Positions 19,123 to 46,109 of a DNA stretch of 64,000 nucleotides are shown piece after piece. Every line of letters begins with the position of its first letter. The first letter of the stretch is position 1. The position numbers and the translations under genes are program-made. This stretch comes from Halieaceae bacterium MED-G27. Lineage in GTDB: Bacteria; Pseudomonadota; Gammaproteobacteria; Pseudomonadales; Halieaceae. Location of the stretch: positions 7,062 to 71,061 of the forward strand of contig NTKA01000005.1 in NCBI GenBank assembly GCA_002456975.1, in the 5' to 3' direction. The notes beneath the pieces were generated by a model. The model saw nothing but the letters and a program-made list of their open reading frames with translations. It was not told where the DNA came from and ran no database searches.

Positions 19123-20171
19123 AGCAGAGGCTTCACATTGGATGAGCTTTCGGTTTGCTCCTGGGACTCATAGGCATCGACGACTCGCTGCACCAAGGGG
19201 TGTCGCACCACATCTTTTCGGTCGAAGTTAGTGAATGAAATGCCAGTCACCTCGCCCAAAATATCGCGCGCGTGGACCAAGCCAGAGGGTTGGCCTCGCG
19301 GTAGGTCGATTTGAGTCGTATCCCCAGTGATGACCGCTGTAGAGCCGAAGCCCAGTCGCGTTAAAAACATTTTCATCTGTTCGCGAGTGGTGTTCTGTGC
19401 CTCGTCGAGAATGATGAAAGCATTGTTCAGCGTTCGTCCGCGCATAAAAGCTAACGGAGCAACTTCGATGACATTGCGCTCGATCAATTTGGTCACGCTC
19501 TCCACGCCCAGCATTTCGAACAATGCGTCATACAACGGCCTGAGGTAGGGATCTACCTTCTGCGTTAAATCGCCTGGCAGAAAGCCTAGGCGCTCGCCGG
19601 CTTCAACCGCCGGTCGCACCAGCAGGATGCGTTTTACCTCTTCCTCAAGCAGCGCCTCGACAGCGCAGGCCACCGCGAGATAGGTTTTGCCAGTTCCTGC
19701 GGGACCTACACCAAAATTCAGGTCGTGGCGTCGAATGGCATCCACGTAGCTAATCTGGTTATATCCTCGCGGCTTGATGGTTCCGCGCTTGGTTTTTATA
19801 CCTCTCGCCTGACCGCCCGAGTTCGGTGGTGCCAGCGCTAATAGTTCGAGATCTGCTTGCTGTAATCGTAGGTGCAAACTCTCAACACTCAGACGGAGCC
19901 CCTCAGAAATCTCCCGATACAGCTGTCTGATAAGTGACTCGGCAATCGAGCAGATAGGCTCTGGACCACTCAAGCTGAACTGGTTGCCACGATTGCTAAC
20001 AGCTATCTCTAGTCGTTCGCTGATTAGTTTTAGATGCGTGTTGAGGTGCCCGCAAAGTACGGCAATGTGCTTCGCATCGTCGGGTTCGAGTAAGAAAGAG
20101 TATGAGGCGTAGCCGGACCGACTGTCGGGTTCCGGGGGTATGGGGTCAATGTCCAAGGACTGTTTGGCCAC
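19119..20171 (-). CDS. ybeZ: PhoH-family ATPase (YbeZ)
   Basis: GPAGTGKT, RPAVEAGE, RGRTL, DEAQN. Confidence 0.94.
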   Translation of the reverse strand: MAKQSLDIDPIPPEPDSRSGYASYSFLLEPDDAKHIAVLCGHLNTHLKLISERLEIAVSNRGNQFSLSGPEPICSIAESLIRQLYREISEGLRLSVESLHLRLQQADLELLALAPPNSGGQARGIKTKRGTIKPRGYNQISYVDAIRRHDLNFGVGPAGTGKTYLAVACAVEALLEEEVKRILLVRPAVEAGERLGFLPGDLTQKVDPYLRPLYDALFEMLGVESVTKLIERNVIEVAPLAFMRGRTLNNAFIILDEAQNTTREQMKMFLTRLGFGSTAVITGDTTQIDLPRGQPSGLVHARDILGEVTGISFTNFDRKDVVRHPLVQRVVDAYESQEQTESSSNVKPLL

Positions 20172-20192
20172 TCATGCTGTGTATGAACGCCG

Positions 20193-20220
20193 AAGATACC
20201 GCGCCGCGCGCCGATGTCAA
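20193..20220 (-). promoter_or_regulatory. Sigma70 promoter for the phoH-ybeY-corC-lnt operon
   Basis: TTGACA-16 bp-TATCTT, 21 bp upstream of the GTG start; the -35 contains the TGA stop of the miaB remnant. Confidence 0.7.
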
Positions 20221-20346
20221 CTGTCCAATACGCCCCGTAGCGGCTTTGGTCGTCTTTGTTCACCTCGACCGTGGCTAAGTTTTAGATCAAATCATGCTCA
20301 AGACACGAGAGGTTGGCCTATCGATGGTTGTCGGTCAGCACTGCCA
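20217..20346 (-). pseudogene. Decayed copy of the miaB 3' end
   Basis: Hand alignment to 23001-23131 gives about 100/131 identities, two in-frame stops (TAG, TAA) and a 1-nt deletion. Confidence 0.9.
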
Positions 20347-20597
20347 GAAGCGTCCGTGTGGCTACCTGCGTATCCTGGAGAGTGGAAACCGTTCGGGTGA
20401 TGCGGCGTCGTTTGTCACGCTCACGGAGGGTACACAAGTCGCGGCCGTAGGAGCGCAAATACACCTCCATGTGTGGCCGAGCATGCTGAGTAATGCCCGT
20501 CGTTTTTGCGTTCGTTCGAGAGGGTGTGTTGTGGCATATTGTTAGACCGTGCTAAAAGAAAGAACACTCGATTGACCGCACAATCTAGGGGGTTTGC

Positions 20598-22658
20598 ATG
20601 AGCTTACGTATTATTGCCGTTGTCATCGGCGTATGTATTTGTGGCATTGCCTATGCCGATGATCACGCTTCTGAATTTCTTGACGTCGGCGACTGGCTGG
20701 AAGCCGAGCGGGTCAGCGACGCGCGTATCTCGCCGGACGGCAGCAAGATCGTTTACACGCGTCGATACGTCGATAAGATCAATGATCGATTTGACTCGTC
20801 GTTGTGGATCATGGACAGCGACGGTGAACGTGAACGTTTCCTGATCAAGGGTTCGAATCCGCGCTGGTCGTCAGACGGTACGCGATTGCTGTTCACGGGT
20901 CCAGACAAGAATGGTAAGCCCCAAATATTCGTTCGGTGGATGGATGACGAGGGGGCGGTCTCACAGGTAACCAATGTCACTGTGACGCCGGCGTCGCCGA
21001 CCTGGTCACCCGACGGCGAGCATATTGCATTCGTTGCTATTATCCCGGCCAAGAACAAGTGGAATGTATCCATTCCCTCGCCACCCGAGGGCGCGAAGTG
21101 GACCGAGGGACCTCGTATCCTCGATCGTATTCACTACCGTCAGGATCGGGTTGGTTTTCGCGATCCGGGGTATTCCCATCTGTTCGTTGTGCCGGCGAGT
21201 TCGGGCACGGCCCGCCAGCTGACCTCAGGCGAATGGCACGTTGGTGCACAGTTCGACGGACTGTTCTTTGGGGCAGGTTTAAGCTGGACGCCCGACAGCA
21301 AGCGAATCTTGTTCGATGGACTCGATGATCCAAACAGTGATTTGATGTATCGGCGGTCGCATATCTACGCTATCGATGTCGCTACAGGCGAACGGGAGGT
21401 GCTGACTGACAGCATCGGCTACTGGACCGATCCGGTCGTGTCGCCTGATGGTAGGCGCGTTGTCTATTCCGGTTACCCGAAAGCGAAGGAAACCTACGAA
21501 ATGCCGCATCTCTTCGTCATGGATATCGACGGCGGCAACCCTAGCAACCTGACCGAAGACTTCGACCGGCCGGCGAACGCCGTGATCTGGGACGACAACA
21601 ACCGCCGGATCTATTTCACTGCCCAGGATCGCGGTTACGTCAATGTCTTCAAAAGCGATCTCAACGGAAAAGTGACTCCGGTAACCTCCGGGCAGCAGGT
21701 CGCAACACTGGTATCGGCCGACAAGGCGCGCACTGTTGGTGTCGGTCTTATCAGCAACTTTAGCGAGCCCGGCGACATCTACCGTTTCCCATTGGCTAGG
21801 CCCGGAGAGCCGACCCAGTTGACCGCGGTCAATGCCGATATGCTGGAGGGCAAGACGCTCGGTGAGCAGGAGGAAATCTGGTTCGAGGCGGAAGATGGAA
21901 GCATGGCACATGGCTGGATTGTCAGGCCACCAAATTTCGATCCCGAGAAAAAATACCCGATGATTTTCGAAATTCACGGTGGTCCGTTTGCCATGTACCA
22001 GGGCCGCTTTAATCTGACCTATCAGATCTACGCGGCGAACGGATTCGTCGTTCTCTATACCAATCCGCGTGGCAGCACGGGTTACGGCGAGGCATTTTCA
22101 CAGGCGATCAGCCGCGCGTATCCGAGCGTCGATCATCTCGATCTGATGGCGGGTGTCGACGCGGCACTCGAGACTGGTTATGTGGATGAAAAACGCCTTT
22201 ATGTCGGTGGCTGCAGCGGTGGTGGCGTACTATCCAGCTGGATGATCGGTCATACCGATCGTTTCGCAGCGGCGGCTGTCCGTTGCCCGGTCGTTAACTG
22301 GATGAGCATGATGGGAACCACCGATATTCCCTTTTTCACGCTGTCTTTCTTCGAGAAGCCCTTCTGGGAAGACCCGACCGATTGGTTGAAGCATTCATCG
22401 ATCATGTATGTCGACAAGGTGACCACTCCGACACTGGTCATGACGGGTGAAAAGGATCTGCGGACCCCGATGGCGCAATCAGAAGAGTACTATGCGGCCC
22501 TAAAGGTGCAGGGGGTACCAGCGCAGCTAATGCGCTTTAACGAAGAATATCACGGTACAAGCTCAAAGCCGTCAAACGCGATGCGCACCATGGCTTACAT
22601 GATGGCTTGGTACAACCAGTGGACCGAGGATGGTGAAGTCACTGACTCGGACGAGTAA
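20598..22658 (+). CDS. Secreted S9 family peptidase (beta-propeller plus alpha/beta hydrolase)
   Basis: Signal peptide; PD40-like SPDG repeats; IHGGP, NPRGSTGYG, GCSGGG (Ser), DLRTP (Asp), EYHG (His). Confidence 0.93.
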   Translation: MSLRIIAVVIGVCICGIAYADDHASEFLDVGDWLEAERVSDARISPDGSKIVYTRRYVDKINDRFDSSLWIMDSDGERERFLIKGSNPRWSSDGTRLLFTGPDKNGKPQIFVRWMDDEGAVSQVTNVTVTPASPTWSPDGEHIAFVAIIPAKNKWNVSIPSPPEGAKWTEGPRILDRIHYRQDRVGFRDPGYSHLFVVPASSGTARQLTSGEWHVGAQFDGLFFGAGLSWTPDSKRILFDGLDDPNSDLMYRRSHIYAIDVATGEREVLTDSIGYWTDPVVSPDGRRVVYSGYPKAKETYEMPHLFVMDIDGGNPSNLTEDFDRPANAVIWDDNNRRIYFTAQDRGYVNVFKSDLNGKVTPVTSGQQVATLVSADKARTVGVGLISNFSEPGDIYRFPLARPGEPTQLTAVNADMLEGKTLGEQEEIWFEAEDGSMAHGWIVRPPNFDPEKKYPMIFEIHGGPFAMYQGRFNLTYQIYAANGFVVLYTNPRGSTGYGEAFSQAISRAYPSVDHLDLMAGVDAALETGYVDEKRLYVGGCSGGGVLSSWMIGHTDRFAAAAVRCPVVNWMSMMGTTDIPFFTLSFFEKPFWEDPTDWLKHSSIMYVDKVTTPTLVMTGEKDLRTPMAQSEEYYAALKVQGVPAQLMRFNEEYHGTSSKPSNAMRTMAYMMAWYNQWTEDGEVTDSDE

Positions 22659-22670
22659 GTATGCTGCAGT

Positions 22671-22698
22671 CGTCCGGAGAGCCTTCGTTTTCCGGGCG
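22671..22698 (+). terminator. Probable terminator of the S9 peptidase
   Basis: CGTCCGGAGA...TTTCCGGGCG stem with G-U pairs, followed by GTTTGTT. Confidence 0.55.
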
Positions 22699-22739
22699 GT
22701 TTGTTACGATTCCGCCGTTGGTAACCGTACGCCTGTTTC

Positions 22740-22947
22740 GGTAGCCACGAGATGATCCTGCATCAGCTATGAGCGAAGGTTTGCGTCGTTCGTGTACACG
22801 CCGAGCCGGTCGTGATTGGGGCGTTAGTGCATTCGTTGCCGACTTTTCTAGGTCGCTGAATACGACTACGAGAACGGTGTGTGCGGCCCATGCGATACGG
22901 GTTCAGTGCTGGAGTCGGTGTTCCCAGTAGTACGCCAGATCGGCCGC
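22740..22947 (-). pseudogene. Probable heavily decayed copy of the phoH 5' end
   Basis: Collinear blocks shared with 19982-20124 (GGT.GCCACGA, CAGCTAT, GTCGTTCG, CGGGTTC, GCC.GA.CG.C.G), separated by insertions. Confidence 0.55.
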
Positions 22948-23000
22948 GAACACGCAGTAAGATAGTCAGGCAGTTGAGAGCTACCGCGCTCGCGCCGATA

Positions 23001-24341
23001 TTAAAGGTCTAATGCGCCCCGTAGCGAGTTCGGTAGTGCTTCGATCACCTCTACCGTGGCGAAGTTGCCGATTAAATCTTGATCAAGACATGAGAAGTTG
23101 ACCACTCGATTGTTCTCGGTCCGTCCCGCCAATTGCCCTGGGTCTTTTTTTGATACGCCCGTTACTAGGATGCGTTGTTTCGAGCCCACCATTCGTCGGC
23201 TGATGGCCTGCGCTTGTTGACTGATGCGCGATTGCAAGATGTGTAATCGCGTCTTTTTCACGTCATCTGGCGTGTTGTCCGCAAGCTCGGCGGCCGGTGT
23301 GCCAGGCCGGGCGCTGTAGATAAAGCTGAACGACGTATCGAAACCAACGTCATCAATGAGCTTCATCGTGGCGGCAAAGTCCGGTTCGGTCTCTCCGGGA
23401 AAGCCGATGATGAAGTCCGATGACAGTGAAATGTCGGGTCTGATGGCACGCAGCGCACGAATCTTGGACTTGTACTCGGTCGCTGTGTGGCCGCGTTTCA
23501 TTGCCATCAGTATGCGATCAGACCCGCTTTGTACCGGAAGGTGAAGATGGTTAACCAGTGCTGGCACTTCGCGGTAGCACTCGATGAGGCTGTCGCTGAA
23601 CTCTACAGGGTGAGACGTGGTGTAACGAATTCGCTCGATGCCGGGAACCATGTTGACCAGCGTAATGAGTTCAGCAAAGTCGACGATCTCGCCCAAATGG
23701 TTATGGCCGCGATAGGCGTTCACATTTTGCCCAAGCAGGTTTATCTCTTTTACACCACTGTCGGCGAGGTGGGCGACTTCGGCAATGACATCGTCAACCG
23801 GGCGGGAAACCTCCTCACCACGGGTGTAGGGAACGACACAAAACGTGCAGTACTTGCTGCATCCTTCCATGACCGACACAAAGGCAGTGGCGCTGTCGGT
23901 GCTTGGTTGCGGCAGCCGGTCAAATTTCTCAATCTCGGGAAACGAAATATCGACAACAGCGCTGCTACTCGATTCCCGGTCGTCGAGCATCTCAGGCAGT
24001 CTATGAAGTGTTTGGGGGCCAAAAATGAGATCGACGTAGGGTGCTCGCTCGCTGATTGCCTCACCCTCTTGGCTGGCAACGCAGCCGCCGACCCCAATGA
24101 CAACATCGGGTCGCTTCGCTTTGATTGCTTTCCATCGCCCCAGCTGATGAAAAACCTTTTCCTGCGCCTTCTCTCGAATAGAGCAGGTGTTCAGCAATAG
24201 GACATCAGCCTCCTCAGCATCGTGAGTCTGCTCCATGCCATGGCTCTCTTTGAGTAAGTCACCCATTCGAGCCGAGTCGTATTCATTCATCTGACAACCG
24301 TGGGTCTGAATGAAAACCTTTGATCGCTTGGCGTCTGTCAA
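23001..24341 (-). CDS. miaB: tRNA (i6A37) methylthiotransferase
   Basis: GCQMNEYDS; radical [11 protein letters not shown]; C-terminal TRAM domain. Confidence 0.97.
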
Positions 24342-24467
24342 AGTTGCTGATCTCTGATAACGGAAAGCCGCGAAGTATACCGCTTATAGTGACAAACTCA
24401 GCAACACTAATGCTCGTTTTGGTTAAAAGTGCTAGCATCGCGACCCCATTTGAACGACAGCTACACT

Positions 24468-24809
24468 ATGGCGGCGCAACCCGTTTACAAAATCATTTTT
24501 CACAATGGCAAGCAGGTCTTTGAGATCTTTGCTAAGCAGATCTACCAGAGTGATATGTGGGGGTTTATAGAAATCGAAGAAATGCTGTTCGGTGAGCGAT
24601 CGCAAATTGTTGTCGACCCGAGCGAGGAGAAACTGAAGTCAGAGTTTTCCGGCGTCAAACGCAGCTACATCCCGATGCAGTCGATCATCCGCATCGATGA
24701 AGTTGAGAAGCAAGGCGCGGCCAAGATCAGCGAGGGCGGCGAGGGTAGCAAGATCGCAACCTTCCCAATGGCACCGGGGGGTGCCAGTTCGGTCGGTTCA
24801 GATGATTAG
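24468..24809 (+). CDS. DUF1820 family protein
   Basis: YKIIFHN...VVDPSEEKLKSEF..VKRSYIPM..IRIDEV; divergent from miaB. Confidence 0.85.
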   Translation: MAAQPVYKIIFHNGKQVFEIFAKQIYQSDMWGFIEIEEMLFGERSQIVVDPSEEKLKSEFSGVKRSYIPMQSIIRIDEVEKQGAAKISEGGEGSKIATFPMAPGGASSVGSDD

Positions 24810-24823
24810 CAACCAACCAATGA

Positions 24824-25816
24824 TTAACCCAGTTTGACGGCGCTCAGAATTGCGCGTTGCGGCGCCGAGTGACCTTCGATTGTTTTTTGTGAGTCGTCCG
24901 GATCAAGGAAGTCTGACAGTGAGTGAAAGGTCATCCACGACGTGGATCGCTGCTCGGCAGTGCTGGTTTGGTTGATATCGACTAGTTCAACATCGACAAA
25001 TCCGAGTTTTTTGAGCCAACTTCCCAGCGCCGGCGCGCTTGGCAGAAACCAAACATTCCCCATTCGCGCATAGCGATCTGGCGGCATAAAAACGGTCTGA
25101 GCGTCACCCTCAACCACCAGTGTTTCCAGAATGAGTTGACCACCCGGGGCGAGACATTCTCGTAGCCGAGACAAATGATCGATCGGCGATTTCCGGTGAT
25201 AGAGCACGCCCATCGAAAATACGGTATCAAAGGCCTCTAGCTTTGCTGGTAGATGCTCTAGCGCGAGTGGCAAAACGTGAATGTTTGGGCACTGCAGGTA
25301 ATGTTGCAGGGCCTTGAATTGAAGGACAAACAATGGCGTGGGGTCGATGCCAATCACTTCATCGGCGCCCTGACCCAGCATGCGCCAACAGTGGTAGCCA
25401 TTCCCACAGCCGACGTCGAGTACGCGTTTTCCGGCCAGTGGACGAAGCGCGGGCTGCAGGCGATCCCATTTGAAGTCAGATCGCCACTCGGTATCGATAG
25501 TCACGTCGAACAAAGAGAAGGGACCTTTTCGCCATGGGTGCAAGCCTCGCAATGCGCGCTCGAGTTCGCTGCTTGACGCTTGGCTAATATCACCGGAGCA
25601 ACCAACTGCTGATTGATTCAGTAATGTTGCGTCGGCGTTTAGCTGGGGAAGTGCTGCCAGCGCATCGCGCCAACGTGGCAGATCGCCGTAGCGTTTTTCG
25701 GACATTCTGTGCGCAATATCGCCCGGCAGTTGCTCAAGCCAGTTGACCAGCGACGGTAACTCCCAGCGTTGGTTGAACTGTTCTAAGTCGAAGGCTAGTT
25801 CGGTCGGCTGATCCAC
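24824..25816 (-). CDS. cmoB: tRNA U34 carboxymethyltransferase
   Basis: PWRKGPF, IDTEWRSDFKW, DVGCGNGYH, MGVLYHR. Confidence 0.96.
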   Translation of the reverse strand: MDQPTELAFDLEQFNQRWELPSLVNWLEQLPGDIAHRMSEKRYGDLPRWRDALAALPQLNADATLLNQSAVGCSGDISQASSSELERALRGLHPWRKGPFSLFDVTIDTEWRSDFKWDRLQPALRPLAGKRVLDVGCGNGYHCWRMLGQGADEVIGIDPTPLFVLQFKALQHYLQCPNIHVLPLALEHLPAKLEAFDTVFSMGVLYHRKSPIDHLSRLRECLAPGGQLILETLVVEGDAQTVFMPPDRYARMGNVWFLPSAPALGSWLKKLGFVDVELVDINQTSTAEQRSTSWMTFHSLSDFLDPDDSQKTIEGHSAPQRAILSAVKLG

Positions 25817-25829
25817 AATAATCGGTTCC

Positions 25830-26555
25830 CTAGGCGATTGCGATCAGCGATGCGAAATTCAGGCATTGAAACCAGACCTCGGATCGGCTGAAGCCGGCTG
25901 CCTTTAGCCTCGCTCTGTGGTCATCGGCTGTCTCGGGTATCAGCACCGTCTCGAGTGACGACCGCTTTTGGGCGATTTCCAAGTCGCTGTAACCCTGAGC
26001 TCGCTTGAAATCATGGTGCATATCGATCAGCAAGTGGTCCATGGTAGGGTCGTCCATCGCGAGTTTCTCAGAGAGAATCAACAATCCTCCGGGCACTAAT
26101 GCCTCCCGGATACGGCTCAGCAGTGCGAGGCGCTGATCGACAGGTATAAACTGTAAGGTGAAGTTGAGTATCACAACACTACTGGGTTCTAATTTCACAG
26201 CCGTGATATCGGCTAACTGCCAGTCTATGCGTGATGCGTTGGAAAATTGCAGCTGCGCGCGGTTGATCATGGCCTCCGAGTTATCGATACCAACGAGCTT
26301 GCAGCTGTTGCTTGGGATCGCAGCTTCTGCTGCTCGGAGCGACTCGCCCAGCGAGCAACCTAGGTCATAGATGGCGGTTTCTGGCACAGCGTGGCGTTGT
26401 GCCAGCAACCCGGTCATAGCGACGATCGTAGAGTAGCCTGGGACCGAGCGTTTGATCATATCGGGAAAGACCTCAACCACCTCTTCGTTAAAGGTAAAAA
26501 GAGAGGGGTCGGCCAACACCTCGCTGAATAGGCGATCGCGTTTTGATTCCGTCAT
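25830..26555 (-). CDS. cmoA: Carboxy-SAM synthase
   Basis: VFPDMIKRSVPGY, YDLGCSLG, NFTLQF, WFQCLNF. Confidence 0.96.
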   Translation of the reverse strand: MTESKRDRLFSEVLADPSLFTFNEEVVEVFPDMIKRSVPGYSTIVAMTGLLAQRHAVPETAIYDLGCSLGESLRAAEAAIPSNSCKLVGIDNSEAMINRAQLQFSNASRIDWQLADITAVKLEPSSVVILNFTLQFIPVDQRLALLSRIREALVPGGLLILSEKLAMDDPTMDHLLIDMHHDFKRAQGYSDLEIAQKRSSLETVLIPETADDHRARLKAAGFSRSEVWFQCLNFASLIAIA

Positions 26556-26654
26556 GAAGCGCTACTTTCAATCTCAATATCTAATGCCAATTATGATAAC
26601 AGGCGTTCCGGCACCAACATGGTTCCCGTATACTCCGGCGTGTTTCACTGTTAG

Positions 26655-27851
26655 ATGAGAGTCCAGATGCTGAGCACGCTTTCGGTATTACCGCCCGACC
26701 CCATTTTAGGCCTCGCTGCGACTTGTCGCGCCGACACCAATCCCGACAAGATTGATCTGACGGTAGGCATATATATGGATGAGAACGGTATCTGCCCTGT
26801 CTTCGAGGCTGTTCAAATGGCGCAGCGGGCGCTGATAGCGGAGGAAGTCACCAAGGCCTATCTTCCTGCTGCGGGTGATCAGATGTTTTTGGATCAAATG
26901 AAAGGGCTGGTTTTTGGCGATGAGCTTGTTGGTGACGGCCAACACATTACCGCTATTCAGACACCCGGTGGTTGCGGCGCTATCCGAATCGCTTCTGAAG
27001 TGCTCGCTGAGGCGTCTCCCGATGCCACCGTCTGGGTGAGCAATCCGACTTGGCCTGTTCACATCCCTTTACTCGGCTCGGTGGGGCTTAAATTTGCCAC
27101 TTACCGCTACTACGACCCAGCCAGCCATGGCGTCGATTTCGAGGTTATGGTTGACGATCTAAAAGGAGCCAGGGCTGGTGATATCGTTTTGTTGCACGGT
27201 TGTTGTCACAATCCCTCGGGTGCTGATCTGACGTTAGACCAGTGGTCAGCGATCGCAGATCTTGCTGAGTCACAGGGTTTTACCGTACTGATTGATCTCG
27301 CTTACTTGGGGATGGGAAAGGACCTTGAAGTTGATGCGGCGGGTTTGCGATTGATGGCGAGCCGTTTGGGAGAAGTGATTGTGGCGGCATCCTGCTCGAA
27401 AAATCTTGGTTTATACCGGGAGCGAACCGGTACTGCTCTGTTTTTTGGCCGCAATTCACAAACAGCGGCAGCGACCCAAAGCCACGGTCTGGGTGCCGCG
27501 AGACGGGTTTACTCAATGCCGCCAGCTCACGGTGCGCTGCTAGCTGGCCGAGTGCTCAGTGACCCAGAGCTCAGGGCATCTTGGGAGGCCGAGTTGGCGG
27601 GTATCTGTGCAAGGATGAACCTGCTACGAAATACCTTTAGTGAGCGACTGACGGCACGTACTGATCGAGACTTTGCATTTATCTCGCGTGAGAACGGGAT
27701 GTTCTCGTTCTTGGGCTTGTCTGTTGAACAGGCGCAGTCATTGAGGGCATCCCGAGGTCTGTATATGCTGGACTCGTCACGGATCAATGTGGCGGCGCTC
27801 AATGACCACAATATGGACCTTGTGGTCGAGGCTGTTGCATCGGTTCTGTAG
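26655..27851 (+). CDS. Aspartate/aromatic amino acid aminotransferase (AspC/TyrB family)
   Basis: PPDPILGL, HGCCHNPSG, SCSKNLGLYRER (PLP Lys), SRINVA; start may be 26667. Confidence 0.93.
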   Translation: MRVQMLSTLSVLPPDPILGLAATCRADTNPDKIDLTVGIYMDENGICPVFEAVQMAQRALIAEEVTKAYLPAAGDQMFLDQMKGLVFGDELVGDGQHITAIQTPGGCGAIRIASEVLAEASPDATVWVSNPTWPVHIPLLGSVGLKFATYRYYDPASHGVDFEVMVDDLKGARAGDIVLLHGCCHNPSGADLTLDQWSAIADLAESQGFTVLIDLAYLGMGKDLEVDAAGLRLMASRLGEVIVAASCSKNLGLYRERTGTALFFGRNSQTAAATQSHGLGAARRVYSMPPAHGALLAGRVLSDPELRASWEAELAGICARMNLLRNTFSERLTARTDRDFAFISRENGMFSFLGLSVEQAQSLRASRGLYMLDSSRINVAALNDHNMDLVVEAVASVL

Positions 27852-27906
27852 TTCTGTCGCTCTGTAGTTCTGGAGCTACGTAGCGGTCAGCGAAGGCGTC
27901 AGATCG

Positions 27907-30935: not shown

Positions 30936-31080
30936 GCCGCCCCTTGCCCGTTGGGGATTTTACCGTTTGTAAAACAGGGCAGACGCCTGTATATCAGAGG
31001 TAATGGGGCGGGTTTAAGCGGGGGATAGCGTTGCCCGAAGCATGTGAAAAAAAGAGCAATTCGGCAGAAAATGTTGTAAA

Positions 31081-31251
31081 CAAAGACCCGACAAGCCGGC
31101 GCTAACCCACGAGCAAGCGATGTGGATTGTTTTAGAAAGCGATGGACGGACAAAGCCCGAGCATTTTCGTCCCGATGTGCTCAAGGCTTTTGAGTTGGCG
31201 CAGCTTGAGATGTGTCGAATATTTGAATCTTTCAAAGACGCAGAGCAGTGA
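31081..31251 (+). pseudogene. C-terminal remnant of an HD-GYP phosphodiesterase
   Basis: Frame reads QRPDKPALTHEQAMWIVLESDGRTKPEHFRPDVLKAF...IFESFKDAEQ*, matching the RPYK..H..A..I...DGR..P.HFDP.V..AF tail; in-frame TGA at 31045 and no start codon before the motif. Confidence 0.75.
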
Positions 31252-31282
31252 GTGCTAAGCAGATGATGGCTGGGGTCGAGAC

Positions 31283-35256: not shown

Positions 35257-35280
35257 TCTGAGCCTGAATCCGAACGACTG

Positions 35281-35565: not shown

Positions 35566-35591
35566 TGATCTTATTTCTCTTTATTGGCCAC

Positions 35592-35617
35592 AAAAAAGGG
35601 GAGCTGAGCTCCCCTTT
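35592..35617 (-). terminator. Intrinsic terminator of hppA
   Basis: GGGGAGC/GCTCCCC stem followed by T6 on the minus strand. Confidence 0.85.
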
Positions 35618-35633
35618 CTATCATCAGTTTTGA

Positions 35634-37631: not shown

Positions 37632-37781
37632 TGAATTGTCTCCCCAGATTACAGTCGGCACGGATACGGCCTTATTAGGTTTTTTTATAGCGCCGGAAGT
37701 ATCCGGCACGAGTCAGCGACCGGTCAAGGTTTCGCGCGGGCTTAGCCCGAATCCTGCTGATAATTCACGCCAATAGTGGGC

Positions 37782-39050
37782 TCAATCGAAGATTTTGACG
37801 CGCCCTATGCGGTTCGAGCTACTCTGATGAATCAGGAGGTCGCCGTCGCGGGTTTCCCAGGTGTGTCGAATAATCCCGATACCCGACGGAACAGGCCAAC
37901 TTTGGAAACGTTCAGCGCTGGGGTCAAAGCGCACCAAAACGTCAGGTCGCATGCCGCTCTCGTTATACCAGACGATATCGTCGATCACCGTCATTGAATA
38001 GGGGTGTGAGGTGGGGCCACTGGGCGAATCCCACTGGGTCACGGTGCCTGAGTCCACGTCTAGGTGGCCGATCTTTCCCATGGAAGAGTTTACGAACCAG
38101 ACATTTCCCTGACTGTCGATATCGAGTCGTCGAATCCGCGTGCGCTCGTCGGGTACGGGATAGTAGATGACCTCCATAGAGTTTGGATCCAATCTGCCAA
38201 TGGTGTTAGTACCGTTGTAGGCGATGAACAGGTCATTATCTAGACCAACCTTTATCCCGTAAGGTTTTTTGCGTGTTGGAATCTCGGTGATATCGCCCGT
38301 TCGCGGATCTAACCGGCCTAGGACATTCGAGTGCTGCGCCGTGAAGTACAGATTGCCGTTGGGATGGAATGTCCCCGTATGCGGATCGCGGGCCTCTGTT
38401 TGGTATTCGGTGATATCACCGGAGCCTGGATCGAGTTTTCCGATGGTGCTGTTACTGTTGCCCGTGTACCAGATAAAACCCTCGGCATCAGGAATAATGG
38501 AGTGGGGACGCGCGCTTGGTGGTAGCGGATACTCACGCATCTCGCCCGTCTTCGGGTCGAGTCGGCCCACGAGAGACGCCCACATACCAGTCCACCAAAT
38601 ACTGCCATCGGGCGCTTCTATAGGGTCACGCGAGCGCTGTCCCAACGAAGGTACGACCCATTCCTCTATCTGAATTTGTGTGGAACCACCGACTATACGT
38701 GGTGCTTTTCCTGGCTTGTGGGGGTAATGCTTAGCTAGATATTCGCTGATTCGCGATTTTTGATCGGGCGCAAGATCGATCATGCTCTCAATGAGATGCT
38801 GCCATTCCTCTGGTGTGTCATAGCCTTGCGCTCGATCGAGGTAGAAAAGGCCATGGCAGGTAGAGCATAGCGCCTCTACTTCGGCTTTTGCTGACTGTTG
38901 AGGAACCTGTGCATTGACGGCGTGAGGGATCCAGCTAAAGGCCAGTAATACTGCACCCCAGCCCGTGAGTAGGTGCTTGAATCGACCGCGTGTGGTCACC
39001 ACACGTTGAGCTAATAGGTCCTCCAACAGAGCGATCTTGAGTAGAGCCAT
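37782..39050 (-). CDS. Secreted cytochrome c / Vgb-like beta-propeller fusion
   Basis: Signal-like segment ending VNA; CSTCH heme motif; repeated G.IW.T...IG.LDP.TG...EY blades; start uncertain. Confidence 0.8.
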   Translation of the reverse strand: MALLKIALLEDLLAQRVVTTRGRFKHLLTGWGAVLLAFSWIPHAVNAQVPQQSAKAEVEALCSTCHGLFYLDRAQGYDTPEEWQHLIESMIDLAPDQKSRISEYLAKHYPHKPGKAPRIVGGSTQIQIEEWVVPSLGQRSRDPIEAPDGSIWWTGMWASLVGRLDPKTGEMREYPLPPSARPHSIIPDAEGFIWYTGNSNSTIGKLDPGSGDITEYQTEARDPHTGTFHPNGNLYFTAQHSNVLGRLDPRTGDITEIPTRKKPYGIKVGLDNDLFIAYNGTNTIGRLDPNSMEVIYYPVPDERTRIRRLDIDSQGNVWFVNSSMGKIGHLDVDSGTVTQWDSPSGPTSHPYSMTVIDDIVWYNESGMRPDVLVRFDPSAERFQSWPVPSGIGIIRHTWETRDGDLLIHQSSSNRIGRVKIFD

Positions 39051-39376
39051 GAGAAAATCTCCGCACACGCTGATTAGCATTAAGCTAAGCGCCAATCGCC
39101 CGGCCAGTCAACTTGTTCAGGTCCAAAGGATGATAGGTAGACATTTAAACAGCGCCAACGGCGCCTCGTCTTTACGGTGCTATTCAGGTGGCTTTAGGTT
39201 TGGAATTTTAAGCCGCATTCCTGGCCTTACGCTGACCCTGAGACGCACAGGTAAAAGTCGGATTCACTTGTTAACAGCGAGATCCCGATCAATAAAGCTG
39301 CGGAGGGAGTCAGTCTCATTGGCTTGGCAGACGGCTCCTTACAGTGACCTCAGCCAAACCATGAGCATCTACCGCC

Positions 39377-41503
39377 CTATATTCGCGCTCGAAGTGTGAC
39401 GGGTACGCCGTTCACGGCGGCGTTGCCAGAGAGCTGATCGACGAACTGCTCATCGGTAATATCATTACAGCTGACGCCCGCGTACTGATTGGCCACCCCC
39501 GAGCGGGTGCCCGCTAGTCCGTGTCCATAGCCATGAGGCAGGCTCACGACTCCCGGCATCATTTCGTCTGAGAGCTTAATTTCACTCTCGACAGTCCCGA
39601 CTCGGCTTTGAATGGTCACCGTGGTGCCGTTGTTCCAGCCTTCGCGTTCCGCGTCGTCAGGGTGAATCAGTAATTGGCAGCGGGCTTTGCCTTTCATCAG
39701 CCGATGGGAGTTGTGCATCCAGGAATTATTGTCCCTGACATGGCGTCGCCCGATGAGTCGATAGGGTGCATCCTCAGTGTCGGTAGCCTCAACAAAGCGA
39801 GTGATGTCATTGAGTACCTCTGGAATCGAGAGACGGATTCGCTTGCCTGGCGTTTTTAAACGGTTAGGACACGAGGGCTCCAAGGCCCCTAGGTCGACCC
39901 CCGAGGGGTTGGCTTTTAGTTTGTCGATGGAGAGTTGCCACTCGCTGTCACTGCCGTAGGGGCCAGCTTTGAGAGCGGCGTCAACAAGCTTATGCGGTGC
40001 GTGGTGAGGCACCGGATCGAGGTCCAATCGCTGCGCTAAGCGATCACCGAGTTCAGCAAAAATTTCCCAGTCGTGAAGCGAGTCCTCCGGGTTATCGAAA
40101 ATCGCCGGGTTATACCGCGCGGTATTTCTGATTGCCAGATTGTGAAAGCCGATGTCGTAGTGATCATGTTCTAGTGGTGAGGTTGGTGGCAGAATCACGT
40201 CGGCATGGCGCGTGGTTTCGTTGAGCGCGGGATCGACCGAAATCATGAAATCGATTGTCTCTAAGGCTCCATCGAGAGCACGGCCATTGGGAGTCGATAA
40301 TACCGGGTTGCCGGCACCGGTGAACATGAGGCGGATTTGCCCCTCGCCTGGGGTGGTTATCTCCTCCACCATCGTTGCAGCCGGCAATTCATAGTTAAAC
40401 TCAGGCAGTCCCCGGCCACGACTCCGAAAACGATCGAAGCCTCCGGGGCTACTATTAACGATCTGATCCATCGCCGGTTTGGTGAATAGACTACCGCCCG
40501 ATTTATCGAAATTGCCGGTAATGACATTGATGACTTGGATGGCCCATTGGCAAAGCGCACCGTAAGCCTGAGTACTGACGCCCATGCGGCCGTAACAGAT
40601 CGCGGTTTCAGCATCGGCAAGCTCGTGTGCGATGCGTTCAATATCGGAAGCCTCTATCCCTGTAGCCTTGCTTGCCCACTGGGGCGATAGCGGCTGTACC
40701 GCATTGTGCACATCCTCCAGCCCATCCGTGAATTCGGCGAGTTTTCCTGGAGCGACTCGATTATCGCGGAACAATACGTGGATGAGCGCAAGCAAAAATG
40801 CGGCGTCGGATCCGGGTTTGATAAACAGATGCTCGCTTGCCAGTTCGGCAGTTTCGGTTCGCCTAGGATCAACCACTACCAGTTTGCCGCCTCGCGCAGT
40901 CAGTGCTTTCAGGCGCCGGCGCACATCGGGTACTGTCCAAATCGAGCCATTGGACGCTATGGGATTTGCGCCCAGCATCAAGAAGTAGTGCGTTCGGTCA
41001 ACGTCTGGAATTGGGTGCAACAGCATATGCCCGAAACACCACATGGAGATAAGGTGATGGGGAAGCTGATCGACCGAGGTGGCGGAGAATCGATTTCGGG
41101 TTCTGATGTGACGAAAGAGGTTCTTCTGATGGGTCAGCATCCCGTAGTTATGGACCGATGGGTTACCGAAGTAGGCGCCAACCGCATCGACACCGTGTGT
41201 CTGTATTGTTTTGGCGAGGGCATCGGCCGCTAGATCGAGCGCTTCAGACCACTCGATTTCGACGTGTTCATAGTGACCCGCTTTCGATCGTATTCGCTTG
41301 AGGGGTTTGCGTAATCGATCCGGGTCCTCATGGATGTCCTTGAGCGCTACCGATTTGGGACAGACGTGTCCTCGACTCAAGGGGTCATTTTTGTCGCCGC
41401 GGATATCGACGACGGTATCGCCCTCGGTCTTGATCACTAAGCCGCACATGGCCTCACACAGGTGGCAGACACGATGATGAGTAGTGATCTCTGGTTTAGT
41501 CAT
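39377..41503 (-). CDS. Molybdopterin oxidoreductase (4Fe-4S, bis-MGD family)
   Basis: CHLCEAMC..C; GANP; VVDPRRT; GAGNP; NSWMHN; HPDDA; LPHGYG; no TAT signal. Confidence 0.92.
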   Translation of the reverse strand: MTKPEITTHHRVCHLCEAMCGLVIKTEGDTVVDIRGDKNDPLSRGHVCPKSVALKDIHEDPDRLRKPLKRIRSKAGHYEHVEIEWSEALDLAADALAKTIQTHGVDAVGAYFGNPSVHNYGMLTHQKNLFRHIRTRNRFSATSVDQLPHHLISMWCFGHMLLHPIPDVDRTHYFLMLGANPIASNGSIWTVPDVRRRLKALTARGGKLVVVDPRRTETAELASEHLFIKPGSDAAFLLALIHVLFRDNRVAPGKLAEFTDGLEDVHNAVQPLSPQWASKATGIEASDIERIAHELADAETAICYGRMGVSTQAYGALCQWAIQVINVITGNFDKSGGSLFTKPAMDQIVNSSPGGFDRFRSRGRGLPEFNYELPAATMVEEITTPGEGQIRLMFTGAGNPVLSTPNGRALDGALETIDFMISVDPALNETTRHADVILPPTSPLEHDHYDIGFHNLAIRNTARYNPAIFDNPEDSLHDWEIFAELGDRLAQRLDLDPVPHHAPHKLVDAALKAGPYGSDSEWQLSIDKLKANPSGVDLGALEPSCPNRLKTPGKRIRLSIPEVLNDITRFVEATDTEDAPYRLIGRRHVRDNNSWMHNSHRLMKGKARCQLLIHPDDAEREGWNNGTTVTIQSRVGTVESEIKLSDEMMPGVVSLPHGYGHGLAGTRSGVANQYAGVSCNDITDEQFVDQLSGNAAVNGVPVTLRARI

Positions 41504-41654
41504 GCTGAATGCGCCTCCGTTTCCATCTATTATCAGGTACGTGGCTGAATCAGGGAAGGATGAGGCTGCGCTTAACGTGGATTGGGCATTCGATTAGTCG
41601 CGGTTAGGTCGACTTAATTCAACAACTCACGAATGAGTAGAGGCAAGGTGAGGC

Positions 41655-41837
41655 ATGCGAGGTTTTGCGGAGTTAACGACTGAGGAGTTGCTGCAACTGC
41701 TACTGCTCACTCTCGTGTTGTGGGTGCTCGTTGGTACGAGATTTCGCAGTTTTCGATTTTGGTCCGCTAAGAAAAAGGCAGACTATTCTCCGAGAGACGA
41801 GCGCGACGATCAGAAAAGAGTCAAACGAGGGAATTAG
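41655..41837 (+). CDS. Small single-pass membrane protein (60 aa)
   Basis: Purine-rich upstream region; one hydrophobic helix then a charged tail; hairpin plus T-run directly after the stop. Confidence 0.5.
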   Translation: MRGFAELTTEELLQLLLLTLVLWVLVGTRFRSFRFWSAKKKADYSPRDERDDQKRVKRGN

Positions 41838-41920
41838 CTGGGGGCGGTACCGCTCGTTTTCATCAGATGCCGCTCGGCTAGGATCACAGAACATCGGACG
41901 GTGTCTGCTACTGTCAAGGG

Positions 41921-43261
41921 CTAGGGTGTTGGCGCCTCTTCCTCTACTCCAATCCAACGCTGGGTCATCGTGCCCGCAGTTATGGACCCACTTACGTTGA
42001 GTGCTGTTCGTGCCATATCAATCAATGGCTCGATCGAAATCAGTAGCGCAACCAAGGTAACTGGTAACCCCATGGTTGGTAACACGACGAGGGCAGCAAA
42101 AGTCGCACCGCCGCCAACACCCGCGATACCAAATGAGCTCAATGTCACCACCAAAAGCAGCATCAAGAAAAACGAAGGTGCTAGGGGGTCTATACCCACA
42201 GTGGGTGCGATCATTACTGCGAGCATTGCTGGATAAATGCCAGCACACCCGTTTTGACCTATGGTGGCTCCGAAGCTTGCAGCAAAGCTCGCGATACTAG
42301 GATGATTACCGAGCTCCTTAACCTGAGTATCGATACTCATCGGTATCGCCGCCGCTGATGAACGGGAGGTGAAGGAGAAGATGAGCACGGGGAGGATTCG
42401 TTTGAAATAGTTGATGGGAGACATACCACTAAGCGATATCAGCAGGGCATGGACACCGATCATAATAAAAATAGCCGCGTATGAGACCACAATAAACTCA
42501 AATAAATTGAGTATGTCAGCACTGTCCGATGTGGCCGCCATCTTTGTCATCAACGCGAGTACACCGTAAGGTGTCAGCGATATTACCAGCTTCACGAGGT
42601 GCATAATCCACTCCTCGGCAAGCTCAACACCTCCTTTGAGCGCTGCGCCATGCTCGGGTGATAATGCATTCAGACGAAGCCCGGCGACTCCAAGGAAAAT
42701 TGAGAAAATGACGACTGCTATCACTGATGTCGAACGCGAGCCCGAGAGATCGGCAAATATGTTGGTCGGCAGAAAACTCAGTAACAGTGACGGAACACTT
42801 AAGTCAGCGATTTGATTTTGCTTTTCAGCGACCGCCATGGCGCGCGCAAGTTCACGCTCACCCTCGACCAACCCCTCGGCAGACAGGTTAAAGCCTGCCG
42901 CCAATCCTGCACCGATCGCGGCGGCTATTGTGGTCGTGATCAGCAATATGCCTATGATGCTCCCGCCCAGTCGGCCAAGTGCTGCCAGTTGCTCTAAACG
43001 CAACACAGCTGCAGTCATGACCACAATGATGAGCGGCATAATGATCATTTTGAGAAGGCTGACGTACGCCGAGCCAATTAAATTGACCCAGTCGACAACC
43101 GTTGTCAGCGTTTCCGCTGCTAACAGCCACTGAAGTCCGGATCCAAAAACGATACCCAATCCTAAGCCAATGAAGACCCTGCTCGATAGGGACATGTCTT
43201 TTCTCGATAAGGACGCAAGTCCTGCGAGAAGCGCGACAAAAATAAGCAGTGAAAACAACAC
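41921..43261 (-). CDS. tcyP: DAACS family symporter, L-cystine transporter TcyP-like
   Basis: FTSRSSAA, ATIGQNGCAG, GVGGGATFA, EPLIDMARTALNV. Confidence 0.88.
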   Translation of the reverse strand: MLFSLLIFVALLAGLASLSRKDMSLSSRVFIGLGLGIVFGSGLQWLLAAETLTTVVDWVNLIGSAYVSLLKMIIMPLIIVVMTAAVLRLEQLAALGRLGGSIIGILLITTTIAAAIGAGLAAGFNLSAEGLVEGERELARAMAVAEKQNQIADLSVPSLLLSFLPTNIFADLSGSRSTSVIAVVIFSIFLGVAGLRLNALSPEHGAALKGGVELAEEWIMHLVKLVISLTPYGVLALMTKMAATSDSADILNLFEFIVVSYAAIFIMIGVHALLISLSGMSPINYFKRILPVLIFSFTSRSSAAAIPMSIDTQVKELGNHPSIASFAASFGATIGQNGCAGIYPAMLAVMIAPTVGIDPLAPSFFLMLLLVVTLSSFGIAGVGGGATFAALVVLPTMGLPVTLVALLISIEPLIDMARTALNVSGSITAGTMTQRWIGVEEEAPTP

Positions 43262-43523
43262 GTTAAATCTCCCCAGAGAATTAGTCTTCTACAGTGGGTT
43301 GGTGTGGAGTCAGTAAAGGCAGGCCTAGGCAAAGCCGCATCTCTTCTCCTTCGATGTGGTGTTATTGTATCAACTCTGCTACGCCAACATAAGCGCAGCG
43401 AAGCCGATAAGCGTCGAAACAATGAGCAAAACACGATCAGACGGCTTTGTTACCAACTACGGACAGGTGTTTTACTAGCTAGCGGCTCGCGTTTGGTACG
43501 ATGTGCATTGCGAAAAAGGTGGG

Positions 43524-43600
43524 TGGTAGCTACGGGTGGACTTGAACCACCGACCCCAGCATTATGAATGCTGTGCTCTAACCAGCTGAGCTACGTAGCC
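43524..43600 (-). tRNA. tRNA-Met (CAT), elongator type
   Basis: GGCTACGTAGCTCAGCTGGTTAGAGCACAGCATTCATAATGCTGGGGTCGGTGGTTCAAGTCCACCCGTAGCTACCA, 77 nt. Confidence 0.96.
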
Positions 43601-43612
43601 ACAAGGGCGCGT

Positions 43613-43641
43613 AGTTTGTCGGGAATCGTGATTTAGGTCAA
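43613..43641 (-). promoter_or_regulatory. Probable sigma70 promoter of tRNA-Met
   Basis: TTGACC-17 bp-CAAACT followed by a GC-rich discriminator. Confidence 0.55.
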
Positions 43642-43715
43642 CGGTCAGTTGCTGTCTTTAAGGGCTTTTTCCCACTAGTCTTTACCCATGCCCTGTATCG
43701 GTGTGTGCGCTGAGA

Positions 43716-45005
43716 ATGTTCGCGAGTGTAAGACGACTATTTGCCGCTTCTAAGCTTAAGCCTTCCGTTTCTGACGTTAGGAAGCATAAGGATTTCTCGC
43801 ACCTGTCAGACGTCCAATTGGCGAAGTTAGTGCGCTTAGCAAAACTCAGGAAACTGGCAGTTGGTGAGGTTATTACTATGTCGACTGCGGGAGACGCGAG
43901 GCGTTATCTCTTTAAGGGCAAAGTCAGAGTTCGCTCGGCCAAGCATGAATTTATTTTGGATATTCAAGGTGCATCAGAAGGTCTGCCCTCCCTAGACGAA
44001 TTATTGGCAGAATCGGTTCGTATAGAGTGCCTGACACCCGCGTTCGTACCTGCCATGCCAACTGCTCTCATTGGTGTCTCTCATGAGGTGGGGTTAGATG
44101 ACTGGGTAGAGACGCCTGATGAGCTGGCTGTGGATGATCTCAGCCTGGATTTAGTGAGTGAGCTCCAAGGTTCACTGGCTCGCGAGATTATGCGTGATGT
44201 TAAGGAGGAGCGGCTGAACCTGCCCACCATGCCAGAGTTGGGGTTGGCCGTTCGTCGAAAGGCTATGGATCCAAATTCGTCTGCAATTGATTTGACTCGG
44301 ATAATTCAGGTCGATGTCACCATCGCCGCCAAGGTTATACAGATCGCTAATTCGCCTGTTTATGCGGGTTATGAGTCGACCAAAACCCTGAATGAAGCGA
44401 TAGCGAGGATGGGCATGATGGCTGTCCAGGATGTCGTTACCGCCTTAACTATCAAGCAGTTATTCGTCACAAAACAGCCGAGACTTCGACGAAGAATGCG
44501 AAATTTATGGGAGCACAGTACTCGGGTTGCGGCCGGAGCCTCGGTTCTAGCGCGCCACGCCGGCACGGTTGATCCGGAGCAGGCGCTGCTGGCAGGTCTT
44601 GTTCACGATATTGGTGAGCTCGCGATTATTCAGTACGCCAACCAGTCCAATCTTTCTTCTATATCTGATGCTGATCTTGATGTGGCAGTGAAACATCTCA
44701 AGGGCCCACTGGGAGCCATGCTGTTGCGACATTGGGGGCTCGGCGAGGAGTTTGTGGTCGCGGCTCGCTTTGCAGATGAATTCGATAAGCAGACGCCAAA
44801 TGAAATACTGCTATTGGACCTCGTTCAGGTCTCCCAACTCCATGCACAGGCGGGAACCTCGATGGCGCTGTCGCTTCAGGACATAACGCAGATCCCCGCT
44901 ATTAAAAAATTGGGGCTGGCAACCGAGGGGCCTGAGAAGAGTATTTCGCTATTAAGAGAAGCTCGCGCTGAAATCGAGACGGTTCGATTGGCGCTAGCAC
45001 TCTAG
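43716..45005 (+). CDS. HDOD-domain protein with degenerate cNMP-binding-like N-terminus
   Basis: LPTMPE, IQVD..IAAKVIQIANSP.Y, LWEHS, LAGLVHDIG; start uncertain. Confidence 0.85.
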   Translation: MFASVRRLFAASKLKPSVSDVRKHKDFSHLSDVQLAKLVRLAKLRKLAVGEVITMSTAGDARRYLFKGKVRVRSAKHEFILDIQGASEGLPSLDELLAESVRIECLTPAFVPAMPTALIGVSHEVGLDDWVETPDELAVDDLSLDLVSELQGSLAREIMRDVKEERLNLPTMPELGLAVRRKAMDPNSSAIDLTRIIQVDVTIAAKVIQIANSPVYAGYESTKTLNEAIARMGMMAVQDVVTALTIKQLFVTKQPRLRRRMRNLWEHSTRVAAGASVLARHAGTVDPEQALLAGLVHDIGELAIIQYANQSNLSSISDADLDVAVKHLKGPLGAMLLRHWGLGEEFVVAARFADEFDKQTPNEILLLDLVQVSQLHAQAGTSMALSLQDITQIPAIKKLGLATEGPEKSISLLREARAEIETVRLALAL

Positions 45006-45014
45006 TCTTCTAAG

Positions 45015-46109
45015 TTAAACGTTGAATCGGAAGTGGATGACATCACCATCAGCCACGACGTAGTCTTTTCCCTCGAGACGCCATTTGCCGGCATCTTTGG
45101 CACCTGACTCGCCGCGATATTCAATGTAGTGGTCGTAACTAATCACCTCAGCGCGGATGAAGCCTTTCTGGAAGTCAGTGTGAATCACGCCAGCGGCTTC
45201 GGGTGCTGTTGCCCCCACTTTGATAGTCCAGGCGCGGACTTCCTTTGGGCCTGCTGTGAAGTATGTCTGTAAGTTGAGCAGCGCGTAGCCGGCGCGGATG
45301 GTTCGGTCCAGTCCCGACTCCTCGAGTCCTAGATCAGCTAAGAACTCTAATTTCTCATCATCCTCGAGTTCGGCGATTTCAGACTCGAGCTTGTTACAGA
45401 TAGGCACTACCCCAGCGCCCTCAGCACTTGCAGATGCAGCGACGGCATCGAGGTGAGGATTATTTTCAAAGCCATCTTCCGCAACATTCGCGATGTACAT
45501 GGTCGGCTTGATCGTGAGCAAATGAAGGGTTTTTACGATGGCGAGTTCATTGTCATCGAAGTCAAGAGACCGCGCGGGTTTCGCCTCGTTGAGATGGGGT
45601 AGCAATTTATCCTCAAGCAATGCTTTGGTCGCAACAGCCAGCTTGTCGCCGCTCTTGGCTGTACGAACTACTTTTTGCAATTGCTTCTCGCAGCTTTCCA
45701 GATCGGCCAGGGCCAGTTCGGTATTGATGGTATCGATATCGGCAAGCGGGTCGATCTGGTTGGCGACGTGAATGACATTCGGATCATCAAAACAGCGCAC
45801 AACGTGAGCGATGGCGTCTGTCTCTCTGATATTGGCCAGGAATTGGTTGCCCAAGCCCTCGCCTTTGGAGGCACCGGCAACAAGACCTGCAATGTCGACG
45901 AACTCCATCGTTGCAGGGATGAGCTTCTCAGGATTAGCCAAGGCCGCGATGTCTTCTTGTCTCGGGTCAGGGACCGAGACCACGCCAGCGTTAGGCTCAA
46001 TCGTGCAGAACGGGAAGTTTTCCGCGTCGATGCCCGCTTTAGTTAGTGCATTAAAAAGTGTCGATTTACCAACGTTGGGTAAACCGACAATGCCGCATTT
46101 GATACCCAT
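45015..46109 (-). CDS. ychF: Redox-regulated ATPase YchF
   Basis: [29 protein letters not shown]. Confidence 0.98.

Follow-up and report, generated by a model that had tools for sequence, protein, structure and literature searches.

In Escherichia coli, the element e14 (and phage 21) reportedly inserts at the 3' end of icd, supplying the gene with a replacement tail. Cis-mobilisable elements (CIMEs) are integrase-less derivatives flanked by attachment sites. In Streptococcus pneumoniae, transformation triggers tandem duplication through alternative pairing across sister chromatids (Johnston et al. 2013, PMC3784515). The yeast WHO elements encode an endonuclease that drives their insertion, and build serial clusters (2020, PMC7282813). 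Homology-facilitated and double illegitimate recombination, both operating in natural transformation, reportedly capture foreign DNA in a chromosome without an integrase (de Vries and Wackernagel 2002; Hulter and Wackernagel 2008; as cited in PMC8116780 and PMC12359135). This work concerns a peptidase cassette inserted between miaB and phoH in Halieaceae bacterium MED-G27 (genome G000; GCA_002456975.1), within a window of 64,000 nt, which is the whole stretch of DNA that was analysed (contig C45:7062-71061; contig NTKA01000005.1 in the database). The window's gene content is of gammaproteobacterial type.

Gene gain in small, mobile-element-poor marine genomes is poorly explained. A target-duplicating insertion offers one solution, as a foreign gene enters a junction that has no spare DNA while both neighbours stay functional. 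At the locus described here, a single cassette was inserted long ago with duplication of its target and, as far as can be seen, without an integrase; this is one well-characterised event, and it does not demonstrate a general route.

The insertion between miaB and phoH

G000 is a metagenome-assembled genome of 2.02 Mb in 68 contigs, 75% complete and with 53% G+C. Directly after miaB comes phoH in 27 of 29 relatives' loci, and therefore the 2.8 kb separating the two genes in G000 constitute an insertion. The components of the locus are as follows.

19119..20171, minus strand: phoH (ybeZ-type), the downstream neighbour at the ancestral miaB-phoH junction (NCBIfam PhoH, 1.3e-62)
20193..20220, minus strand: promoter-like site TTGACA-16-TATCTT for phoH, within the remnant (10/12 consensus matches)
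20194..20346, minus strand: decayed copy of the miaB 3' end (the remnant) with ~24 nt past the stop, the original junction copy
20351..20495, no strand: left spacer, common only to G000 and the sister lineage L060
20496..22790, plus strand: promoter-to-terminator cassette with an S9 family peptidase open reading frame (Pfam Peptidase_S9, PD40, DPPIV_N)
22791..22980, no strand: right spacer, of which 22806-22980 is common to L060 only
22979..23131, minus strand: functional copy of the duplicated segment, comprising the live miaB 3' end and ~24 nt downstream
23001..24341, minus strand: miaB, intact (TIGR01574, 5.7e-180; 87% amino-acid identity to the nearest congeners)

The central observation is that the segment 22979-23131, which takes in the last ~44 codons of miaB and ~24 nt beyond its stop, recurs on the same strand at 20194-20346, the two being ~77% identical over 154 nt. 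Intergenic regions were aligned to the surrounding ±10 kb, and their local scores were judged against dinucleotide shuffles, 100 of them for the miaB/phoH region. The raw score of this repeat was 76, compared with a maximum of 18 in the shuffles, and hence the original prediction, that a duplicated end of miaB flanks the insert, stands on this score as well as on the independent contigs described below. The remnant sits 25 nt upstream of the phoH start, holds two in-frame stops, and is matched by miaB residues 388-432 (tblastn E 6.5e-6), with a fainter protein-level trace of miaB extending it to ~20413. Between the two copies is a 2.6-kb insert, consisting of one S9 peptidase open reading frame (20598-22658, plus strand) and two spacers.

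Alignment to relatives distinguishes the roles of the two copies. The homology of the remnant runs on through the spacer into the promoter and start of phoH; the remnant is the original junction. The homology of the live copy ends ~24 nt beyond the stop, within the -10 box of the promoter-like motif TTGACA-16-TATCTT. This motif, in the form GTTGACA...GGTATC(T/G)T, is kept in all close relatives, and in the live copy its -35-like part has decayed to TTTAATA. Both in relatives and in the remnant, the TGA stop of miaB falls inside the -35 hexamer of phoH; hence the ancestral junction contained no dispensable DNA.

The spacers are less readily placed. At the left one, L060 aligns from 20358 and the loci of the type found in congener G001 only from 20496 or 20510. 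Neither spacer matches anything elsewhere in the G000 genome, and the right one also has no match in 60 congeners. A suggestion that the right-hand region was a decayed phoH 5' end did not survive comparison with phoH, as 22740-23000 scored 9 where shuffles scored 9.9 ± 1.3; neither phoH-like nor miaB-like sequence was found in the right spacer.

It is scarcely credible that this layout is an assembly artefact. The genome is incomplete and in 68 contigs, and its samples also contain related lineages at 86-90% identity, both of which could favour misassembly. However, the stretch is present in 16 runs from about nine studies, and contigs from other studies and another assembler bridge both junctions at an identity of at least 99.8%, with 0-3 mismatches, which refutes an artefact at miaB. 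Furthermore, a Joint Genome Institute contig of the sister lineage shows the identical layout, and copies at 77% identity are too different to mislead an assembler. The insert is bypassed, by a joint from 20230 to 23015, only in contigs in which miaB is 86% identical; their divergence marks them as coming from a relative with an empty site, rather than from excision in the same strain. No same-strain empty-site or excised forms were seen among the contigs, which drop rare variants. Runs X17-X20 were rejected as variants of the locus: they contain only 23-38% of its words, and X17 and X20 hold mostly the G001-type cassette and relatives.

Separately, in two loci from other families, L023 (G025:C3:100115-104440) and L029 (G029:C239:1-3180), phoH is missing from the 1.5 kb downstream of miaB. 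These may be independent changes at the same junction.

Origins of the duplication and of its cargo

The two copies of the miaB tail are ~76% identical to each other, as against 59-69% to the six closest congeners, and share 13 derived states that are absent from all six. Of the differences that can be polarised, the remnant accounts for 20 and the live copy for 11. The shared derived sites and the mutual closeness of the copies argue for duplication of the lineage's own sequence, rather than the arrival of a foreign tail borne by an element. Hence the repeat is a true duplication of host-lineage sequence, with both copies derived from the recipient. The insertion is old.

The sister lineage L060, known from a metagenome contig, is 87-91% identical to G000 across miaB, the DUF1820 gene and cmoB, and carries this cassette, together with both spacers, at the same position. 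Its contig ends within its own remnant, the visible 115 nt of which are 92% identical to L060's own miaB and correspond to 23131-23245 of the window, 113 nt deeper into miaB than the remnant in G000. As the L060 remnant reaches further into miaB, the segment first duplicated probably measured 267 nt or more. Its copies have since been remodelled, by deletion in G000 and by conversion or a second event in L060. Between the fresh-looking miaB fragment of L060 and the spacer that it shares with G000 are 33 nt without a match (L060:116-148), a possible sign that this joint underwent a second event.

The cargo has a different history from the duplicated tail. The cassette is also found in congener G001 and four metagenome loci, at a different chromosomal locus and with ~89-90% DNA identity, the shared DNA spanning only ~20496 to ~22790, from the promoter through to the terminator-like hairpins that follow the peptidase stop. 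Between G000 and G001, the cassette is ~90% identical in DNA, compared with 76% for miaB, 69% for phoH and 65% for cmoB. As housekeeping genes are so much more divergent, the cassette is a foreign, discrete unit that is horizontally exchanged. The contrast between the peptidase's third codon positions (75-84% identical) and its first and second (95-98%) indicates that the gene is under purifying selection. The peptidase tree, with bootstrap values of 56-59%, does not give the direction of transfer; the peptidase cluster has 557 members, and their contexts were taken from the related-loci search. Around the cassette at the G001-type locus, no flanking duplication was detectable.

The original prediction also held that the miaB cargo lacked mobility genes, and as far as is visible the insertion is indeed integrase-free. 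A six-frame genome search with PF00589 found tyrosine recombinases only at C66:39037 and C21:283, serine recombinases not being searched separately. When called proteins were compared with the two intergenic regions flanking the cassette, only the miaB tail rose above chance. No inverted repeat links the ends of the insert, and the duplication of at least 154 nt is unlike that of a transposon, insertion sequence or miniature inverted-repeat element. No reverse transcriptase (PF00078), the mark of a diversity-generating retroelement, was found in the assembly, where the genes with repeated ends are housekeeping genes, and no Ku was found in the genome.

These results bear on the idea that the locus is a decayed site-specific island, in which an integrase-encoding element targeted the 3' end of miaB with a replacement tail and then lost its integrase, leaving a CIME-type remainder. 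The geometry is that of left and right attachment sites (attL and attR) at the 3' end of a gene, with direct repeats of the target tail (77%, 154 nt), and known elements duplicate gene tails of similar length. In the same genome, repeats of a tRNA-Ala tail (51 nt, 98%) and a tRNA-Leu tail (62 nt, 92%) flank cargo without an integrase. However, no recombinase gene or fragment is present in the 2.6-kb insert, either in G000 or in the sister lineage, and only ~0.4 kb of it lies outside the cassette, which occurs elsewhere without such repeats. Moreover, 13 lineage-specific sites are common to both tails, so the new tail was not an unrelated one borne by an element. On balance, such an island is distinctly unlikely.

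Gene-end repeats across the genome and the window

A scan that covered 1733 called genes together with 519 intergenic regions, each 100 nt or longer, found at raw scores of 30 or more 31 same-strand matches within 10 kb where 0.2 were expected from the density of far matches, a ~100-fold excess. Opposite-strand matches over the same distance numbered 1, against 0.3 expected. Collapsed to loci, the near matches comprise six plain intergenic tandem repeats, four robust tandem copies of a gene's own 3' end without cargo, two weaker copies of this type (dcd and cytochrome b561), one missed paralogue and five repeats flanking intact genes. Hence the enrichment that the original prediction had proposed as a check is genuine, but little of it concerns cargo, as it is made up mainly of cargo-free 3' end copies and intergenic tandem repeats rather than repeats around lineage-specific genes.

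The cargo-free copies are themselves informative. At pepN, four tandem in-frame units of 117 nt straddle the stop, each ending in TGA and 80-89% identical (C10:16687-17135; L046:2188-2636), an array seen in none of 30 relatives. The 3' end of folB, on C12, is copied in tandem as a 140-nt unit without filler. The 3' end of dinB (79-100 nt) is repeated after ~30-47 nt of unrelated filler, the source of which was not found (C18:24908-25115; L048:1909-2116), and the native terminator-like hairpin comes after the decayed copy; this layout is the miaB geometry in miniature. Downstream of a gene for a SpoU-type methylase is a copy of its 3' region (C68:33547-33832; L049:548-833), directly preceded by (CCCGTCTG)5, which is a sign of slippage. 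The filler between copies thus forms a series, from none (pepN, folB), through tens of nucleotides (dinB), to 2.6 kb (miaB).

Such copies raise the possibility of two separate steps, in which the miaB tail was first duplicated in plain tandem, making dispensable DNA between miaB and the phoH promoter, and the cassette landed there later by illegitimate recombination. Tail duplications without cargo, as at pepN and folB, are present in this genome, and the ancestral junction lacked neutral space. Yet the cargo is at the joint of the duplication rather than within the remnant, no miaB-like sequence follows the end of the live copy, and no cargo-free miaB duplication is present among the relatives' loci. 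We regard this sequence of events as very unlikely.

Five repeats flank genes: those at miaB, a queC fragment, a tRNA-Ala tail, a tRNA-Leu tail, and an 89-nt repeat on C11. The queC fragment (residues 39-132, 83% DNA identity) lies ~400 nt upstream of the GcvT-family gene that precedes intact queC (C51:4966-5226; L054:1967-2227). In congener G009, three more genes separate the GcvT-family gene from queC and there is no queC fragment; the queC genes of G000 and G009 are 92% identical, and are 56-65% identical to those of other queC-bearing congeners. The fragment was rejected as the genus-typical queC displaced by an incomer, as it is closest to the genome's own queC type (66%, versus 44-47%). 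It is one further candidate for a duplicating insertion, and is not counted here as an event. The copy of the tRNA-Ala 3' end (51 nt, 98% identical) is beyond a pyruvate-phosphate-dikinase-like gene of 864 aa, with no integrase in the cargo (C36:7358-10913; L044:2359-5914). The copy of the tRNA-Leu 3' end (62 nt, 92% identical) is 9 kb from the tRNA (C30:6170-15351; L045:2171-11352), across cargo of signalling and redox genes without an integrase match, and with 1.2 kb of non-coding DNA by the tRNA.

Other candidates were set aside. The 89-nt repeat on C11 looks like two small paralogous coding pieces, the repeat on C19 is a pair of tRNA-Thr genes, and the duplicate at C68:40968-42515 is a full-length paralogue missed by gene calling, the same pair being present in G015. 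Two weak protein-level cargo candidates, on C39 (E 0.22) and C23 (E 0.45), equal the number of chance near matches.

When the same pipeline was applied to 800 kb of each of the near-complete congeners G012 and G015 (1.6 Mb), it found zero gene-end copies, where the rate in G000 would predict 4.75 (the probability of none being ~0.009). The excess of tandem gene-tail copies is thus lineage-specific among the genomes compared, and may have a mechanistic link to the miaB event.

Within the window, similar insertions had been suggested at three further places, between ctaA and atl, between ychF and tRNA-Met, and beside the tcyP symporter gene. The genes concerned are arranged as follows.

19119-24341: phoH 19119-20171 (minus strand); S9 peptidase gene 20598-22658 (plus strand); miaB 23001-24341 (minus strand)
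After miaB: DUF1820 gene, cmoB, cmoA, aromatic aminotransferase gene, uup; then ctaA 29862-30935 (plus strand)
After ctaA: genes for a sigma-54 response regulator, an H-NOX protein, a hybrid kinase, a membrane pyrophosphatase, a Vgb-like propeller protein and a molybdopterin oxidoreductase
End of the order: dicarboxylate/amino-acid symporter gene 41921-43261 (minus strand); tRNA-Met 43524-43600 (minus strand); HDOD protein gene 43701-45005 (plus strand); ychF, pth and the gene for ribosomal protein L25

Among the 13 intergenic regions from 19000 to 46500, that at miaB/phoH alone beats its shuffles. The best scores against ±10 kb between ctaA and the regulator gene (30936-31282), and those between tRNA-Met and the HDOD gene (43601-43700) and on either side of the symporter gene (41504-41920 and 43262-43523), were 11-15 against shuffle maxima of 16-19, and tblastn found no match to any neighbour's end in these regions. 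The gene content at these sites varies between relatives in other ways. In the loci of seven relatives (G001, G004, G010, G026, G027, G028 and G031), ychF directly neighbours tRNA-Met, and an HDOD gene stands between them in G000 (window 43601-45014), G012 (57% identity) and G006 (41% identity); synteny thus shows the HDOD gene to be a variable insert at a tRNA-side site without a repeat scar. The regulator beside ctaA is likewise beside ctaA in G012, G003, G008 and G011. The differences at ctaA and tRNA-Met/HDOD are ordinary gene-content variation without a duplication scar.

The same process had also been invoked for the genes that split the imu cassette, and no duplicates flank them. Before three of the split-imu genes is a ~20-nt palindromic motif (2952-2979, 5617-5636 and 10996-11023; score 16-18), the sole other local match in the window, which fits the SOS-type boxes noted earlier for this DNA.

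The recurring route of gene gain proposed in the original prediction consequently contracts to one event and the queC candidate, with the cassette at the G001 locus having no flanking duplication and two congeners having no gene-end copies. As a recurring mode it is only weakly supported. Nothing in the analysis favours gene transfer agents as the source of the DNA.

Mechanism and relation to described systems

Our preferred explanation, held tentatively and with rather less than even confidence, is that a local duplication trapped exogenous DNA at its new joint. A single duplication of the miaB tail, through template switching or unequal exchange between sister strands, would have captured foreign DNA where the new joint formed. 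As observed, the copy upstream completes a functional miaB, and the copy downstream, though decayed, retains the native phoH promoter. A duplicating insertion would perhaps be the only tolerable kind at this junction, because a simple insertion would interrupt the tail of miaB or else the promoter of phoH. Alignment to relatives shows that the duplicated segment was a single stretch in the ancestor, and that the insert sits at the joint.

The principal alternative is that a small circle, carrying the cassette and a 3' fragment of miaB, integrated by one homologous crossover in miaB and thereby duplicated the shared segment. This is a possible explanation, though on the unlikely side. Circle integration had been part of the original prediction, and it does fit the geometry: both copies of the repeat derive from the host lineage, the cargo is exactly between them, and no site-specific enzyme is seen. 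The genome also contains the DNA-uptake genes for ComEC and DprA, and the repeats, once formed, would let the insert loop out and re-enter through homologous recombination, a possible explanation for its spread within the species. However, a circle needs foreign DNA to have been joined to a miaB fragment beforehand, which shifts the problem, and 3' end duplications with mere filler or without cargo would not be expected from it. Furthermore, the cassette's other locus has no flanking repeat, and no empty site or excision joint was seen in the same strain, the joint from 20230 to 23015 coming from the relative with 86% miaB identity. The proposal is not distinguished from junction capture during local duplication by its product. 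It is the series of increasing filler, from pepN and folB through dinB to miaB, that places local duplication with joint capture above circle integration, a ranking that we infer, since the final structures are identical.

Several considerations weigh against local duplication with joint capture. Firstly, the final structure is topologically identical to the product of a single-crossover circle, and sequence alone cannot separate the two. Secondly, the joints are too decayed to reveal microhomology, and no source was found for the two spacers (in the genome and, for the right one, also in 60 congeners) or for the dinB filler. Thirdly, slippage unrelated to the miaB event may have produced the cargo-free tandem copies, and tandem 3' end copies are known from this assembly only. 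Fourthly, the loss of an integrase from islands is plausible, given the two tRNA-tail repeats around cargo that lacks one. Fifthly, the remnant of L060 is 92% identical to its own miaB, as against 77% in G000, which requires gene conversion or a second event.

It is doubtful that the lineage as a whole has an active, enzyme-independent process that duplicates gene 3' ends and occasionally traps foreign promoter-to-terminator cassettes. If true, it would allow genes to be gained at tight operon junctions without harm to either neighbour. Should the tie between the miaB insertion and the tandem 3' end copies be borne out, a testable mutational route to gene gain would be defined.

None of the known systems compared here matches the miaB case in full. 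It shares with e14, phage 21 and CIMEs an intact gene, cargo, and a stranded tail copy in direct orientation, with a repeat of the order of 150 nt; unlike in those elements, no integrase or remnant of one was found, the cargo is one 2.6-kb cassette of housekeeping type, and both tails come from the same lineage. Campbell-type single-crossover integration would yield the same product, in which the homologous segment is duplicated on either side of the insert, but the locus shows no sign of a circle, a plasmid origin or vector-like sequence, and the origin of the joined molecule would be left unexplained.

The remaining parallels come from transformation and from yeast. As is reported for homology-facilitated and double illegitimate recombination (cited in PMC8116780 and PMC12359135), foreign DNA has been captured in the chromosome without an integrase; by our reasoning, however, strand replacement from a one-sided anchor would be expected to delete the target, not to duplicate it. 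The WHO elements likewise insert a new gene tail and cargo, and strand the old tail downstream (PMC7282813), whereas here the cargo is an S9 peptidase only, with no endonuclease and a single remnant. The duplications of S. pneumoniae are of 100-900 kb and need pre-existing repeats, compared with a unit of 0.15-0.3 kb and no known pre-existing repeat at miaB, but in both cases, on the explanation preferred here for miaB, recombination without the enzymes of mobile elements yields a tandem duplication with donor DNA at its joint (PMC3784515).

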